A stretch of DNA of 64,000 nucleotides, from assembly GCF_023055435.1 (NCBI RefSeq), contig NW_025963879.1, positions 14,818,001-14,882,000 on the forward strand, read 5' to 3'. Position 1 is the first letter of the stretch. Each line of letters opens with the position of its first letter. Below the pieces are notes generated by a model. It saw only the letters and a program-made list of their open reading frames with translations. It searched no databases and was not told the DNA's origin. The translations under genes were made by a program, and so were the position numbers. Positions 1 to 27,600 of the stretch are shown in pieces. Source of the DNA: Haliotis rufescens. Its lineage: Eukaryota.

Positions 1-1250
1 CACATGTTGCTACAAGTGCATGGATCTACGAATACATGTCAATATTTAACACGTCCATCAAATATATATAGATCTATTTCACATTTCCGTTGAACCAGTA
101 AGTGCGGGTTTGTATGGTGTTATGTATGAACATAAACATTGAAGGGGAACAACATAACGAAAGTACACGTCACAGTTACAGGTTTTCTACCCCTAGATGC
201 GAATTTCAACCGGTATTATGAGTCAAACACATGCCCACACACATACAGCTTGAAACACCGCTAATGAATTGTAGATGAATTCTGTGTCAGATTGTGTTTT
301 GTCTATTAAGGAGAGAATGGATATGACACCTACCTGTGGAATCTTGTCAATGTTGAGCAAAGGGACGTAATTTCGCAACATATCGCTACTAATATTATCT
401 CCCTTGAAATAACGAAACATTTTCAAACATACACATTACACAGCTCTATCCCCGCCCGAAAGGTTCTATTTTCAAGATTGGAACGAAGTGATACTTAATA
501 TTGGTTACAAGCACTGACGTAGTAACCAATAAAAAAACGACTCCTAAAACTTGAACGACTCCCTCGACGACAAATATAATGACCATTACGCCGACTCCGG
601 GTACTTCTTTCCTTCATAGAAGATGATCAAATCCGGGGTAGGATCAGCATTGAATATACCTTTTAGTATTTGCCGCAATTAGAAGGAGGTATAATGACAT
701 TTTACAAAGATGGCAGAGAATTGATGCTTGTTTCAATTTTAAACGGTAATCATTCTTTGGAATTCCAATATTTACATAATGTAAATCAATAGGCCATCCC
801 ACAGTTGATTTATTGCATTTGGTGTCCAAAGTCATACCGACGTCCCAATGTAGGCGAGCTGTGTTGAGCGCACGGAAATTGTAGAGTGGTGATTTAGGGG
901 CCGCACTACAGCCCCGATGCTGTCATGTTTGATTGTACAATGAGGGGGCACGGGTGGCCCAGTCGTTCGAGGCGCCGCGATTCGCTGTGCAGAGTTGCGT
1001 CCCTTGGGCACGCCAGAAACCTAATATTGTGGGTTCGAATCCCGGTTCGCCCGGATTATGTTTCTAGGTTTGTCAGCACCATACCCGTGCTCGTGGGTTT
1101 CACCGAAGTGGTAAACGTCTGAGACCTGCATCACTTCGGGCTTTCCTCCAACTTTAAACTGACACGCCGTGATATAACTGGAATACTGTTAAAAGCGGCG
1201 TTAAACCCAACTCACTCACTCATTGTACAATGAGTTGTCTGTTTATATGC
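1..1250. repeat. Segmental duplicate of the TRIM 5' flank (pairs with ~12817-14065; more distant copies at 16010-16620 and 28420-29800)
   Basis: Near-identical text including the same SINE A insertion. Confidence 0.92.
945..1221 (+). mobile_element. SINE family A (tRNA-Leu-like head), full length
   Basis: A box TGGCCCAGTCG, B box GGTTCGAATCC, (ACTC)n tail, TSD ATTGTACAATGAG. Confidence 0.9.
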
Positions 1251-6040: not shown

Positions 6041-6976
6041 TTATTGGGTCACAAAGGTTAAAACCTTAATACCATCTAACAAAACATACACACGACCATT
6101 CCCATCTTCACAAATCCCGCGTGGATACTTTAAATCAGTCGGAATGGTTCCAACAACCTCTCCTGACTCCGTCAGATGGATGACGCTGTGCAGATGGTAA
6201 TCTGTAACCAGGATGTCACCTGTGCTGAGACTTGTCATACGAAGTGTAAACGTCGCTGGAATCTCAAGGTCTGTGGGTCGGTAGTTGAAGACCACATCTC
6301 CCTTGGGGGTCAGACACACGAAACACCTGGTTTTCTCGTCAGACACCAGGATGTTTCCTGACGTCGTGGTAGAGAGGAAACTGGGATACTCTACGATGGT
6401 TATCTGTTCAATTAACCGCTGTTTTTCTACTGTCATACCATGGTTATCACGTGGACGACAGTTCAGGATATCAAGACAGGTGACTTGGATTTCATCATAG
6501 AGATCAGACTTATAACTTTGCGGTTAACTCAATAGTTTCTGATCTGGAGGTTTTAAGTAGGCTTTTGTGGTGAAACTTACTGCAAGTGTCGATGGTGTCA
6601 GGGATGTAATGCCAATGTATTCATTGCTGGTGTTGATGGTTGTCAGCAGCTGCAATTCCAGGTCCGGATTGACGCCTACTATTGAAATCTTTTTCCTATT
6701 AAGCAAAGTGACAGCCACCTGATTGTTTTGCAACTTAGTCAGATCAAGCGGATTGCTTTCCAGACTGAGCCTACTGTGGCGTGAGGCACCGTGCTTTTTG
6801 TAGAAGGACTTCACGCACATGTTAGTCAGGTCTATGACTATAATTATATCTGTACCGTCCACCGCCATCACTGTCATGCCAACGGGCTGTGCTATCTCTC
6901 CATCTCCCGCTACTCTGGTGGATGTGATGTCTAACGTAGGAGTAGCCTTCAGGGATAGTTTCATTGAGGTCGCCAT
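6041..6976 (-). pseudogene. NHL-propeller-only TRIM paralog with one in-frame TAA (6524-6526)
   Basis: ctttcag|ATG GCG ACC TCA (MATS) is joined directly to LKATPTLDITSTRVAGD, homologous to LEATPALRDTISTRVAGD of the intact TRIM. ORFs 6524-7087 and 6041-6436 are in the same frame. C-terminus GIKVLTFVTQ vs GIKVFTFVTK. Confidence 0.82.
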
Positions 6977-7493
6977 CTGAAAGATTGAAGTAAGTTGATT
7001 TTCGTAGTTTCTCATTTGTAGTTTAAATATTCCACAAAAAACAACAACATTTGTTCTGAATTTACGTTTGAATAACACCCAAGGCAACAGTAACGTACAT
7101 CTTAACCCCCAAAATAGGCACGTCTTATTTTATTATTTAACAGTTCGACTGCTTTTTCATTACCAATGTTACGCTTGCGAGTACCGCTTGACAATCACAA
7201 AGATGCAGGGTTGCGAGAATCGGAGGTGTGTGTGTGGTCTGTTTCTGTGACAAAAACGTAGACTGATGTCCTGCATTGGTTACAACCGCATGTGCACAAG
7301 CGAGTAAGCTGATTTTCCTCATTTCCATGAGGAAAGTTGACTTGCGAAGCATGTTCACCTTCCTGGTTTAGCTACACAGTTCACGATTCATCCACCTGTC
7401 ACCGAGTCTCATGATAACCCAAATGAGACCATCAACTACACAAATCACATGTTACAAGTCCATGGATCTACTAATATATGTTAATATTGGGGA

Positions 7494-7507
7494 GCGCCAC
7501 CTAGCGG
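7494..7507 (-). promoter_or_regulatory. CTCF-like motif at the LINE 5' end
   Basis: CCGCTAGGTGGCGC on the minus strand fits the bilaterian CTCF core consensus. Confidence 0.45.
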
Positions 7508-7624
7508 TGTGTAGTGCAGCAGCAGAGAAATTTCGCTCTGAGAAAAAAATGAAATAACGTCAAAACCAATCTACCACCGAAGGTAACATTTTGAGAAGTT
7601 CCTCATATCAACAACGTCTAGAAG

Positions 7625-8539
7625 ATGAGCTGTGAACATGCAGATTATACAGCCAGAATCGGCTGTTTTCACTCAATCTTTATCAACTTCATGTTCAAAA
7701 GAGCTAGACGAGCAGCCATGAGGCCGCACGTGCTGCGCGTGCCGAAGAACACCAGGTTACTTCTGCGTCTCTGTTTGTTTGTGTCTGTGTTGACGTTGAC
7801 ACTTAGCAACGATGCCAAAACCCGCCAACTGACGATTGAGGCTTCTGCTTCTGAAGTCCTAAAAGAACTGAAAGAAATGCGCAAGGAAATAAATGGGAAC
7901 TTTGATAAACTTAATCGAAAAATTGAATCTGTTGAAAGGGATATGCAATTGATGATGGAGGAAAACAAAGAACTGAAAGACACTGTGAATAATCTATCAA
8001 ATAAAGTGGAATATCTGGAGGGACTTAGCAAGAGAGATAATCTGATATTATATAATATTGAAGAATCTACTGGCGAAACCACAAGCGAAATCGAAAATAA
8101 ACTTAAAGAAGTTATCACCAAAATGGAACTGAGACCCACAGACTTTGTATATGATGACATCAGACGACTTCCTACCAAATCACTGGGACCCAGACCTGTA
8201 CTCGTGACTATTAGAAATTCGCTTGACAGAAAATCGATATTGAAAGGATCAAGCAAACTGAAAGGATCGAAGTTTGGTGTCTCTCAGGATTTTCCAGAAA
8301 AAGTACGACAAACCCGACGTAAGTTGAAAACGTTTCTAGATAAGGCAAGAGATGAAATGAAGTATGCAGTACTGAGATATGATAAGATTCAAATTGATAA
8401 CAAACTGTACAGATTTGATCACATAAATGAAAATCTAATACACATAAAGACATTCTCACCAGTCACTAGGAGTGGTATAAACAACGCAGCAGCAGTGACG
8501 GAATCAGCGGAAGCAACAGATACAAATGATGATGATTAG
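7625..8539 (+). CDS. LINE ORF1 protein (hydrophobic N-terminus, coiled coil, L1-type RRM/CTD)
   Basis: Open 304-aa ORF with a heptad region followed by SKRDNLILYNIEE..RPVLV..SQDFP..R..RRKL, as in L1/TD1-type ORF1. Confidence 0.85.
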   Translation: MSCEHADYTARIGCFHSIFINFMFKRARRAAMRPHVLRVPKNTRLLLRLCLFVSVLTLTLSNDAKTRQLTIEASASEVLKELKEMRKEINGNFDKLNRKIESVERDMQLMMEENKELKDTVNNLSNKVEYLEGLSKRDNLILYNIEESTGETTSEIENKLKEVITKMELRPTDFVYDDIRRLPTKSLGPRPVLVTIRNSLDRKSILKGSSKLKGSKFGVSQDFPEKVRQTRRKLKTFLDKARDEMKYAVLRYDKIQIDNKLYRFDHINENLIHIKTFSPVTRSGINNAAAVTESAEATDTNDDD

Positions 8540-11498
8540 GGGTGTGGCCAACGTCCATTATGCACAGATATCAGCCTAAAACTGTCAGTGTGGAACTGTG
8601 AAGGTTTCAAGAGATTACTACAAAAGAGTCTTTCTTTAGATTTTATCAATAAACATCACATAGCATGTTTCGTGGAATCCTGGTTGAATAAAGAAGATAA
8701 AGTAGACATTAATGGATATAATACATACAGCAAAACCAGAACTAAAGCAAGTGGTGCTATCAGAAACTCAGGCGGGATACTCACATGCGTGAATCAAGAC
8801 ATTTCAACTTACGTCTGTGAATTACTAAAACAGATAATGTCCAGTGGATAAAACTTCAGTTAAACATTACTGTGGTGATAGGCACTGTGTATTACTCTCC
8901 AGAAGGATCAACCAGCTCACACTCAAAGGAACAATTGTTTGATATTCTAGAAGAGGATATTGATACGTTTCGAAGTTCTTTTCCTAATTGTGAATTCATT
9001 CTACATGGTGACTTTAACGCCAGAACTGGGAATTTAGCAGACTATTTAGAAAATGATGATACCACCTATTTGCCAATTGACGAAAATATAAACTATATAA
9101 TGGATGAACCCGCCCCAAGAATATCTCAAGAAAACAATGTAAACAAAAGGGGAAAGTCATTGTTAGACTTTTGCAAGAAAAATGAACTCCGTATCTGCAA
9201 TGGTCGTTTGTTTCAAGATAAAGACATTGGGAAAATAACTTGTGTTGTGAATGAGGGCCAAAGCGTTGTAGATTATGTTTTGTGCTCAAATAACATATTT
9301 CACCAGTTTACCAGTTTCGATATTTGTAACGAAGTTGAATCCACACACTTTCCTATCACATACTTGTCTTGTTCAAGGGATATAGATCACCTAAGTTGAC
9401 CAATGATACATTATCTAAAAAGTCAAGATATGTCTGGAACGAGAACAAAATGGTAAAATACACTGAAAATTGGAATTTAATATCGGAACATTCTATCCTA
9501 GAAATAACAACAAAAGCAGCATGTGGGCGTGTCGAGGAAGTGGCTGAAAAATTCCACGACTTGCTACTGTCATGTTCAAAGGACTTCAAGAAATCGTCAG
9601 TATCCACAGTCAACAAGGGACATAACTGGTGGGATGCGGAATGCTACCAAGCCAGGTGTGACGCACGCCGTAAACTTCGTGCATTTCATGCAACTAACTG
9701 TAGACGCGACCGCCTCAACTATATCGAAGCATGGAAATCATACAAACATTTGTGTCACCTGAAATGTTCACGTGCTCTCAATATGAAAAAGGAAAAACTT
9801 CAGGAGAGCCTTCTTAATAGGGACAACAAACTATTCTGGTCAATTCTAAAGGGAAAACGACAATTCACAAATCCAGTTATCACACCTGCTGAGTGGATAA
9901 GACATTTTGAAAGCCACTTTAATAGTATAAGCACTTCACCCGATGAACAATCCTTTATTGAAAGCATAATGGACTTTATTGACTCAATCACCGATGATTT
10001 GATAGATACAACTGTAAATACGAATGATTTAGATAGAGATATTAGTTATGATGAAATTACTGCTGCTATTTCAGGTATGAAAAAGGGCAAAGCTCCAGGA
10101 TATAGTGGTATACCAATTGACTTTTTCAAAAATGCTCCATTTGCTTGCGTTAACCTATTACTGACTTTATACAATGCAGTATTGAGAACTGGCATCTATC
10201 CAAAACAGTGGTCACTTGGTGCAATACTTCCAATTCATAAAAAAGGAAATGTAAACAATCCTAAAAATTATCGCCCCATAACTTTACTGGAAGTTTCCGG
10301 TTTGCAGATGACATGGCACTCTTCGATAGAACAGTAAAGGGTCTACAAAAAAGACTTGACAAATTATCTGTTTATTGTTAATAATGGAGCCTCTGTGTTA
10401 ATGTTGAGAAAACAAAAGTAGTTGTTTTTAGAAAAGGTGGTAGACTTAGGAACTATGAAAAGTTTTATCTTGACAATAGACCGTTAGAAATAGTTCCTTC
10501 CTATAAATATTTAGGTGTTCAGTTCTCTAGCAGTGGTTCCTGGTATAAAACACAGAAAACTCTGTCTTTTCAAATGTCCAAGGTTTTGAATACAATGCGC
10601 TCCCAATGTAATAATTTTAGAAATTTATCATTGCCGGTATTGCTGTATATTTTTGATGTTAAATTGTTTCCAGTGTTGACTTATGGATCTGAAATTTGGG
10701 GTTTTCATCCATCGCCAGACGCAACCCGTGTTTACGATACTTACTTTAAGCAATTACTCTGTCTTGGTAGAAGCACACCAAATGTTGTTGCTAGAGGTGA
10801 AGTTGGATATTGTTCATTAAAAGCTAAGATGTACATCAAAATAATTAAGTATTGGCTGAGATTAATTTATCAACAAGATAATGTGATTCTACAGCAGGCA
10901 TATTCTTTTCAATATAGGTTAGCTGAATTAGACAAGAGTTGTTGGGCATATAATGTTAAAATGCTTTTATTTAAGTACGGTTTTGGATTTGTTTGGAAAA
11001 ACCAAAATGTTAATTGTATCACTTCCTTTTTGTCAGAGTTTGAAGAGCGTTGTAAAGAGATTGATTACCAAATGTGGTTTGAGGATTTGTCAAAATATTC
11101 TAAATTGAAAATGTACCAGTCTGTTAAGACTGTCTTTAAATTTGAAGAATACCTATCACTTGTCATTGTACATCCTTATAGAAATGCTCTGATTAAATTT
11201 AGATGTTCAAACCATAAACTTATGATTGAATACGGACGTACACTTGGTATAAGTGCGAATGAAAGATTCTGTCCATTGTGTATCGTACCTTGTGTCGAAA
11301 CTGAATACCATTTTTTGTATGATATGCCCATTCTATAATGATATAAGAAGTCTATTACCAAAATACTATGTACAAAACCCAACTCTTTTTAAATTCCAAC
11401 AACTACTGTCATCACAAAATGCCTACACTGTAAATGTCTTAGCGAAATATATTTTCCTGTCAATGAAAAAAAGATGTAAACAACTCAATATTAATTAA
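8540..11498 (+). pseudogene. LINE ORF2 (APE endonuclease + reverse transcriptase), disrupted
   Basis: Split over ORFs 8588-8851, 8872-9399, 9369-10337, 10574-11338 and 11253-11498; jumps from NYRPITLLEVS to FADDM at ~10300. Confidence 0.88.
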
Positions 11499-11630
11499 TT
11501 GTCACTTTGATTGACCAATGTATAATATTGTATGGCGCTCAATTGAATTGAAAAAATCAATGAAATATGTATTGTATAATGGGCCGGTGGCCCCTTTACT
11601 GCAATAAACTCTCTCTCATATGTTAATATT

Positions 11631-24654: not shown

Positions 24655-27600
24655 TTATTTGGTCACAAAGGTGAAGACCTTAATACCCCTGGATAATACA
24701 TATACTTTACCACGCCCATCTTTACAAATCCCCTGTGGATGCTTTAAATCAGTCAGTATGTTTCCAACAAACTGTCCTGACTCTGTCAGATGGATGACTC
24801 TGTGTAGATGGTGATCTGAAACCAGGATGTCACCTGTGCTGGTACTTGTGATACCACGTGGAGACTTCAGTGCTGTGTCTCCTGTAGGTCTGTAGGTGAA
24901 CACCACATCTCCCTCGGGGGTCAGACACACGACACACTTGGTTGCACAGTCAGACACTAGGATGTTTCCTGTCCTCGTGGTACAAAGGTAGTTGGGATGC
25001 TGTAGTATGTTTTTACCATTATGAAGTGGACCGATTGACCTCAGGGCGTTTCCTGTCATATCCAGGATGTCAACACAGGGAGGAGACTGGGAACTTGCTG
25101 CTAGTGTCGATGATGTCAGAGATGTGATACCCACGTACGTTTTGCTGGTTGTGATGGTTGACAGCAGTTCCAGGTCCGGGTTGACTCCTACTATTATAAT
25201 ACGGTTTATATGTGGCATTGCGACAGCCACCTGATTGTGTGTCAACCTTGTCAGACCCCACGGATGATTGTTTAGTTTAAGTCTACTGTGACAAGGTTGA
25301 TTGTTCCTGGTGTAGAAGGACTTCACACATTTATTCTCCCTGTCTGTTATTACAACTGTATCTGTTCCATTCACAACCATCACTTTCACATCATAAGAGT
25401 CTTTTGTTTTCACGTCACCCGCTACTCTGGTGCTGATGGTGTCACGTAACGCAGGCGTAGCCTCCAAGTCCAGCACATCCTCATATAAAACGTCAATCTC
25501 CCCCAACTGTAGATTGTCTATTGCTCGACTTAGTACGCTGCTGTTCTGTCTAAATGAGATCATTTCTATCCTTATCTTCTCCTTCAGGTCTGCGTCTCCG
25601 ACAGCCTCCACATCACCTGCTTCACACCCCTGATACATCTCATATACATCCATGTCATACTCAGATTGGAGAGCCCGGTCCATCAGCTCAGTCTGTTGTT
25701 GGTACATCTGTACTGACATCTCACCTAACTTTATATCTGCTTTTAGTTGCCCAATGTGTTTGTCTGACATCTCTTTCAGCTCAGCCAGGAGTTTCCTTTC
25801 CTGGAGTTTAATCTTGGCGATTAATGTTTTGCCTGCTGACTGAACGTCGGATTCCAATTGTTTATGTCGAGCTGTTTCTTCATTTACTTTTGATTGCTGT
25901 TTTTCAACATGTGTTTTCGCTTCATCTTGTTTCAGTGATAACTCTCCCCTGGCCTTCGCTATGACACTTTTCATCGTCTGTATCTCCGACTCTATGGTGA
26001 CGACCTGGTCACACTTCCTGTGGTAGATAGTGCAGCATGTGTGGCAAACTGCTTTCTTGCAATCTTTACATAGAAACTTTGTATGTTCGTTCTTGTGTTC
26101 TTTACACATGACCTTTCCCTTTCTCTCAACCTTCACCTCTCTAAAAAGATCAGTGACGTCGTGATGACGTGTTGCTGGGATACGGTTGTGCACTCTTGCA
26201 CATTTCTGGCAGAAGGCGTCATCACAGACTGAGCACCAAACATCAGCTGGAGTTGTCTCCCCGTCGTCTTTACAGTAACTGCAGGACACTCTATCTGAAA
26301 ACCATATATCTCGTATTATAACTTTTGTTTGAAAAAGCTTTACTTGAGTGCTCCTGGCTGAATGAACTGGCGTTTACATAAACTGTAAACACATGTGAAA
26401 TAGGAAACCGTTGATATCATCAAGGATTGAACAACAAACTCCTTTATATGCGTATTTATAATTAGAAAGAACGAAAAAACAGTATATGCAGCATTGACTC
26501 AAACAGGAGAAGCTCCTGGGTCCAAATGCGCGCTCTTTTTTCACATCACGAACACTCGAGACAAAAAAGCCATTTGATAAAGTGGATTCATTATCATTAG
26601 CATCAACTGAGAATACTATATTGTAAAACCAAGTATAAACTGCAACGCATTGATAAGGGACATTTCACATCAGAAAGCCTAATTGTGTAGGTTTGATACT
26701 TTTAGTTTTGCTAAATATATAAACTATTCGGCATTCGACAGGCAGACTGATGTTCGTAATTTTGTCAGAAACATTCTGATGGGCTGTCTTTGAATGACAT
26801 GATGCCACCTTCTGTCTATTTTCATTGCTGTAGTTCAAGGTAACGTTCTTTCTTGTCACAGACATAAAAGCGGCAAAACCTTTCCATAGTACAATTTCCG
26901 AATCCGACTGAATCATAAGCCTGTATTTATGAATCAGTATCAGATAGGGATGATACCAGGTAACAATAACAATTTGCATACTATTGACAATAAACGCTGT
27001 TGGTTATTTGCGAGAGAGGAAATACTCTTAAACGCCCAGAAGTATGAAAACTCATTATGTTTTACCTCAATGTAATTATATGACTGATTACTACTTCATG
27101 TATTATGTATAAAAAAAGTAACATGTGAAGAAACATGCATCGGCGAAGGATTTAGACCCGTCGACCCGCTTTATCTCCCATCATCACTTTATCACACTTC
27201 ATCACCTATCATCACTTTATCACACTTCATCACTTTATCACACTTCATCTACATCATCACTTTGTCACGCTTTATCTCCCATCATCATTTTATCACAATC
27301 CACCTCCTTTCTATCACTCTATCACGCTCCATCTTCTATCATGACTTTATCACACTTCATCATCCATCATCACTTTGTCACATTTCACATCCCATCATCA
27401 CTTTATCACACTCCACTTCTTCTCATCACCTTGTCACGTTTTATCTTCAATCATCACCTTGTCACACTTCACAATCCATCATCACTTTATCACGCTTCAT
27501 CTCCTATCACCATATTGTCATGCTTTATCTTCTATCATCATTTTGTGACACTTCACCTTCTATCATCATGTTATCACACTCCACCTCCTATCACCACTTT

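Follow-up and report, generated by a model that had tools for sequence, protein, structure and literature searches.

In a LINE of the Haliotis rufescens genome, ORF1 and ORF2 lie in one reading frame, parted by a single stop codon and with no AUG ahead of ORF2. This in-frame single-stop junction is a real, clade-wide feature, and the bases beyond the stop are complementary to the element's own 3'-terminal hairpin, the two sites changing together between clades. The reading we favour, and hold to be probable rather than assured, is that ORF2 is produced as an ORF1-ORF2 fusion through programmed readthrough, probably stimulated by a predicted duplex between the junction and the 3' end. That readthrough yields such a fusion, be it with the help of the duplex or from local context alone, appears likely from the sequences compared, and the duplex is the new and directly testable part of the proposal.

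The in-frame junction in the window and among related elements

The window, a 64,000-nucleotide stretch of contig NW_025963879.1, holds on its forward strand a LINE copy (7489..11617), recognised by blastn to nine other genomic copies and likely of the RTE-X/Proto2 group. It is flanked by a 13-bp target-site duplication (identical 13-mers at 7476..7488 and 11618..11630, forward strand), and undeleted copies of the family measure about 4.65 kb. ORF1 (7625..8539, forward strand; a 305-codon open frame) comprises an N-terminal leader, a coiled coil, an L1-ORF1p-type RRM and a C-terminal domain, and a profile of 16 ORF1s matches human L1 ORF1p (E=2.5e-14). ORF2 (8540..11498, forward strand), which lacks an AUG and is broken in this copy, encodes an APE endonuclease with a WNCEG motif at 8591-8605, a reverse transcriptase and a C-terminal Cys/His region; its Pfam matches are Exo_endo_phos_2 in the window copy and RVT_1 in sister copies. 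The element closes with AATAAA and a (CT)n tail (11603..11617, forward strand). With an endonuclease and a reverse transcriptase, an RNA-binding-type ORF1p, a target-site duplication, a repeat tail, 5'-truncated copies and no LTRs, it is an APE-type non-LTR retrotransposon. The window copy itself is dead: ORF2 contains frameshifts, ~480 nt are deleted at 10300, and a 2A-like motif has been deleted from ORF1. Just upstream of the LINE, a broken NHL-type piece (6041-7129, reverse strand) resembles a B-box/NHL (TRIM-NHL-like) gene located elsewhere in the window (24655-26373, reverse strand).

ORF1 ends with the TAG at 8537-8539, from which the frame continues as GGG TGT GGC CAA into W-N-C-E-G without an ATG, as the sequence-only reading had described. 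Stop and following codons form the context UAG GGG UGU (8537..8545, forward strand), which is of type III, a class made up of UAG followed by GGV, GUA or GAU. The same reading had treated the in-frame TAG-G and the absent AUG as potential properties of the family, while allowing that the family consensus might have an AUG or a different frame. Comparison of the ten genomic copies, which are 94-100% identical, confirmed the former: TAG GGG is present in 10/10, and no in-frame ATG precedes the endonuclease motif. The ATGs near the junction are all out of frame (offsets -11, -8 and -5), and the family copies contain no AUG of the SART1 type, overlapping or adjoining the ORF1 stop in the ORF2 frame. 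In the copy whose ORF2 stays open longest, a Met first occurs at ORF2 residue 191, beyond the endonuclease N19, E-S-W and GDFNAR motifs. A copy-specific mutation as the cause of the junction stop is ruled out by these ten copies and by the wider survey that follows.

Protein searches of the genome, with follow-up, gave 259 loci, 250 of which had an endonuclease start and were grouped into 51 families; the loci were picked as endonuclease relatives, partly by their long open frames, and are not a random sample of LINEs. The C-terminal domain of ORF1, found in 42 families by a profile seeded from in-frame ORF1s, locates the end of ORF1 without recourse to the junction itself. At least one copy with a single in-frame stop and an open spacer occurs in 35 of these 42 families (74/123 when counted per copy), and five of the seven failing families still show the stop and the motif by eye, in frame-shifted copies. 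The spacers are open and in frame over 15-724 codons, a state expected in about four families when spacers are shuffled. In the 35 families the stop is TAG (30), TAA (3) or TGA (2), with UAG-G in 26 and a different context in nine; 133 of 139 copies retain the stop and none has TGG in its place. Seven families have an in-frame Met ahead of the endonuclease Asn, and in two of these it lies 9 and 16 residues ahead, where it could act as a start codon; a Met within the spacer is seen in six family representatives and in most copies of family 4. A reverse transcriptase tree joins 45 families in a single clade, divided into three subgroups and set against two conventional LINEs; in two outgroup families ORF1 occupies a different frame, and one of these has a Kozak ATG.

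Two sets of loci have features of their own. The very young L066 family has many near-identical copies across the genome, with 1173-codon ORF2 frames and the in-frame stop in all, and is good material for expression and footprint studies. Loci L174-L187 (families 29, 33 and 34) carry acidic low-complexity spacers of 200-700 codons, open in frame before the endonuclease, which in families 33 and 34 begin at the ORF1 stop.

The junction is also found in other organisms. A protein-anchored scan of metagenome contigs recovered 79 loci, 21 of them with an endonuclease start; a single in-frame stop is present in all five that have an ORF1-domain match (L260, L261, L276, L286 and L308) and, by eye, in L262, while six more distant loci have an AUG ahead of the endonuclease. 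In a bivalve LINE library compared over about the first 400 letters of each entry, three entries, read by eye, lack an ATG and have TAG-GA in the endonuclease frame; two of them are labelled RTE-X, and in two the end of ORF1 is visible (PMC10294476). Since these entries share the in-frame TAG-GA, and library entries labelled RTE-X look similar by eye in their ORF1 start and 2A motif, the window family likely belongs to RTE-X, a group whose confusion with Proto2 is noted in the library paper (PMC10294476). The nearest named protein is from Lottia gigantea. A Lottia gene model joining ORF1 to the endonuclease lacks the first endonuclease strand and is probably a prediction artefact, and a search for natural fused forms of ORF1 and ORF2 returned one longer ORF1 relative, with no ORF2 part.

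The 2A-like motif, DVESNPGP, lies near the ORF1 N-terminus in intact copies of the window family and is deleted near 7813 in the window copy, which keeps a remnant near 7800-7820. A putative 2A of the form D(V/I)xxNPGP, following a hydrophobic ORF1 leader, was identified in 24 of the 51 families (L011 and 23 others), almost all of the W type described below. A 715-aa protein (P0001) combines DVESNPGP and an ORF1-like domain with a long disordered tail, and is possibly a domesticated ORF1.

Complementarity between the junction and the 3' end

Conservation after the stop is limited to positions +4..+20. The larger (W) group of families reads GGYC-N1-2-SSYC from +10, and the corresponding GGYC..SSYC element of the window spans +10 to +28 (8546..8564, forward strand). 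The codon at +10..12 is GGC in 20, GGT in 3 and GAC in 2 of 25 families, whereas GGC makes up 38 of the 282 Gly codons of the endonuclease; this excess means that the constraint acts on RNA, and a peptide-level constraint (G-x-G-Q-G-P) was rejected for the same reason. Folding of the downstream sequence, proposed earlier with a gammaretroviral signal in mind, disclosed no excess of local structure: values after the stop were not above those of shuffled sequences in 33 families (mean z about +0.2 to +0.5, pseudoknots being outside the program), and a large stem-loop 3' of the stop with a PRTE bulge, as in tombusviruses, is not predicted here.

Bases +4 to +30 of the junction and the 3'-terminal hairpin of the same element, 3-3.5 kb further on, are complementary. 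In the 25 W-group families the 3' end reads TGTA-N-GGGCC-N3-GGCC, followed by AATAAA and a microsatellite. In the window the 3'-terminal element (11573..11594, forward strand), with the hairpin GGGCC-N3-GGCCC at 11581-11593, is the predicted junction partner: 8553-8564 would pair with 11573-11584 as a 12-bp helix, and the extended duplex has a predicted energy of -31 kcal/mol, the corresponding values of the two local folds being -14.4 and -4.3. The duplex core keeps a fixed position at +10 to +19 from the stop. Between clades, junction and hairpin change together; families 13, 33 and 34, which belong to a second group, combine the hairpin CCACC-N3-GGTGG with the junction GGTGG-ACA, and family 37 contains a compensatory pair.

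The predicted junction partner is located about 60 nt upstream of the terminal hairpin in L178 (family 31) and, by eye, on both hairpin flanks in L062 (family 12); the geometry of a switch between the two structures may thus vary among families. Sister family 5 (L203, L362-L368) has a 50-nt 3' tail near-identical to that of the window family, with an ORF2 only about 45-50% identical, and the 17 stretches fetched for its junction were all 5'-truncated. A SINE with a shared tail was considered and discarded, the extra tail matches being this sister LINE family and seven loci having no tRNA genes.

Junctions are predicted to pair better with their own 3' ends than with those of other families, the mean duplex energy being -20.9 kcal/mol for own pairs vs -18.0 for swapped ones over 34 families (p=5e-5). 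Own pairs also beat swapped pairs in the W group alone (25 families, p=1e-4; reverse-complement control, p=0.53), and in the L group alone the values were p=0.27 with a 45-nt 3' window and a borderline p=0.04 with a 110-nt one. Permutation within clades gave p=0.035 (45-nt window) and 0.004 (110-nt), and sister swaps favoured own pairs in 11/16 (sign p=0.11) and 12/16 cases (p=0.04): with relatedness controlled, the signal shrinks yet remains, and is modest. Segments up- and downstream of the junction showed no own-pair effect. The junction motif as a mere copy of the 3' hairpin was rejected on an identity control that was null within clades and in the W group, with p=0.018 over all 34 families in the 45-nt window; GGCC is palindromic, and complementarity is therefore partly also identity.

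When the whole element was scanned for the site that pairs best with the junction, the 3' end came first in 12 of 25 families and ranked high in most of the rest; a good duplex is absent from families 26 and 36 and from contig L276. Among the held-out metagenome contigs, the own 3' end ranked first in L261 (of 787 windows) and L286 (of 805 windows), and not in L276. When the sequence was folded from +4 to the end, the terminal hairpin was opened into the duplex in 8/9 elements; with the junction removed, the hairpin re-formed in 6/7 finished runs, so that duplex and terminal hairpin behave in these predictions as two exclusive states. The full-length minimum-energy fold, obtained for one element, has no duplex and keeps the local hairpin.

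Probable readthrough and its alternatives

The shared frame, the one stop, the UAG-G bias and the lack of a start codon point to readthrough into an ORF1-ORF2 fusion. The sequence-only reading had suggested readthrough of the gammaretroviral kind; the in-frame UAG-G and missing AUG that it described recur throughout the family, among related families (35 of 42) and beyond this genome in other organisms. In pseudoknot-free folds, the local structure typical of those viruses is not predicted. UAG GGV, to which the window's UAG GGG conforms, is the Beier-Grimm type III context and is weak without downstream structure (PMC13517186), and UAGGGGUGU is quoted as the retroviral context (PMC3234231). 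UAA is poorly read through (PMC13517186), and its use by three families here speaks against readthrough. Because type III contexts are weak without structure, and because the duplex is the only conserved candidate and would lie beyond the ribosome, it is the duplex that may act as the stimulator.

On this model translation would usually terminate with the release of ORF1p, and a minority of ribosomes, stimulated by the duplex just beyond the terminating ribosome, would insert a near-cognate residue at the stop and continue into ORF2. The RNA would switch between a duplex state, from which ORF2p is made, and a free-hairpin state available for ORF2p binding and reverse transcription, the passage of the ribosome freeing the hairpin; the enzyme would be made only from RNAs with an intact 3' end. 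By analogy with stringent LINEs, whose ORF2 proteins bind a 3' stem-loop (PMC4176376), the hairpin would be the stem-loop recognised by ORF2p. No protease domain was found in the element proteins, and the fusion would therefore stay joined. Since what is conserved 3' of the stop is a duplex predicted to reach the far end of the RNA, a reporter containing the junction only could be prone to false negatives. The wider proposition, a clade-wide and virus-like recoding in which 2A StopGo in ORF1 is followed by readthrough switched on by ORF2p's 3' hairpin, seems to us evenly poised between right and wrong.

Covariation shows pairing, not the purpose of pairing, and the duplex might serve NMD escape, cis preference or the masking of the hairpin until ORF2p is made, with readthrough arising from local context alone. 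About 3.5 kb lie downstream of the ORF1 stop, and such a long stretch is a typical NMD trigger; some families, moreover, start with CAA or CAG after the stop, as in leaky type I contexts. This account is rather improbable given that the distance of the duplex core from the stop is constant, at +10 to +19, where readthrough stimulators are located, and that type III contexts are weak without downstream structure (PMC13517186), local structure not being predicted.

Alternatively, ribosomes might terminate and then re-initiate without an AUG immediately beyond the stop, held or positioned there by the duplex. This would have LINE precedents in SART1, which requires a downstream structure, and in L1, which re-initiates (PMC5972666, PMC3708506), and would avoid an unprocessed fusion. 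Re-initiation needs no common frame, yet ORF1 and ORF2 share one in 35/42 families, and the strong UAG-G bias suits readthrough rather than re-initiation. Directly after the stop most families have GGG, GGA, CAA or GAC, only 5 of 35 carry a near-cognate start among their first six codons, and no stop-start overlap is conserved across the 35, all of which makes re-initiation improbable.

TAG-G could serve as a 3' splice site, and UAG is among the triplets that ADAR prefers. Nevertheless, removal of the stop in RNA (by splicing with a TAG acceptor or by A-to-I editing to UGG, both unlikely) or expression of ORF2 from an internal promoter, such as Tca2 has at its junction (PMC2194720), is very improbable: TAA and TGA families exist, TGG occurs in 0/139 copies and the junction is skipped in 0/10 family copies, though RNAs of that kind would be expected to re-enter the genome as copies, contigs of three presumed-RNA runs, which drop rare forms, span the junction with no joint and no listed stop change, and a subgenomic RNA would offer no usable ORF2 AUG. 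No data set registered as RNA was listed as containing the element, and two small-RNA runs contributed 0 and 21 reads, none at the junction and too few to bear on editing or footprints.

Readthrough stimulated by the duplex would, if true, let one RNA switch check that the RNA is full-length, give ORF2p its cis preference and pass the RNA on from translation to retrotransposition. How ORF2 is translated, its initiation being called an open question in PMC3894237, and how ORF2p comes to prefer its own full-length RNA are long-standing questions, and one short, mutable duplex would answer both; compensatory variants already exist in nature across dozens of families. Gene predictors mis-annotate such ORF2s from a downstream Met or join them to ORF1. 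Full-text searches of the literature, with Repbase descriptions outside their reach, found no report of junction:3'-end pairing in a LINE, and the in-frame stop may already be recorded in Repbase Reports, Kojima 2005 or Alisch 2006.

Relation to known systems

Gammaretroviral gag-pol resembles the LINE junction in its type III UAG-G and in having a structural gene in frame with a reverse transcriptase gene; it differs in its local H-type pseudoknot from +12 (8-nt spacer) and its fusion-cutting protease (PMC13517186), neither of which was found here, the folds being free of pseudoknots. The Group 3 non-LTR elements of Paramecium likewise hold ORF1 and ORF2 in one frame, with readthrough suggested from consensus sequences, but constitute a ciliate clade for which the available text describes no stimulatory signal, long-range pairing or test (PMC5405496).

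Among LINEs, SART1 and mammalian L1 share a bicistronic RNA with low ORF2 output, and SART1 has a structure downstream of the junction (PMC5972666, PMC3708506, PMC3894237). Unlike the family described here, they use an overlapping UAAUG, or a two-stop spacer and an AUG, and make separate proteins (PMC5972666, PMC3708506, PMC3894237, PMC2241872), as rat L1 does from its two ORFs (PMC2241872). The 2A motifs of non-LTR elements are likewise situated near an N-terminus; those published belong nearly always to single-ORF elements, within ORF2, and the available text names no RTE clade among them, whereas here the motif is in ORF1, before the putative readthrough junction (PMC3708506, PMC3894237). 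Zebrafish ZfL2 has a conserved terminal stem-loop ahead of a short-repeat tail, as do the elements studied here; binding by ORF2p was shown there and is conjectural for the present hairpin, which has a second predicted partner (PMC4176376).

In tombusviruses, too, a UAG-G precedes the polymerase, and its readthrough involves a pairing that spans about 3.5 kb and has a replication element at the 3' terminus as its distant partner, much as is predicted for the LINE; in CIRV, production of p95 requires this pairing (PMC3234231). The structures involved are mutually exclusive and have been proposed to cull truncated RNAs and to coordinate translation with replication (PMC3234231). The tombusvirus is a plant RNA virus whose PRTE is a bulge in a large local stem-loop (PMC3234231), whereas in the LINE the post-stop bases are themselves the predicted partner of the terminal hairpin, whose 5' flank is paired as well as its two arms. 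If the proposed mechanism is true, 3'-end-controlled readthrough would extend from plant viruses to animal genomes.
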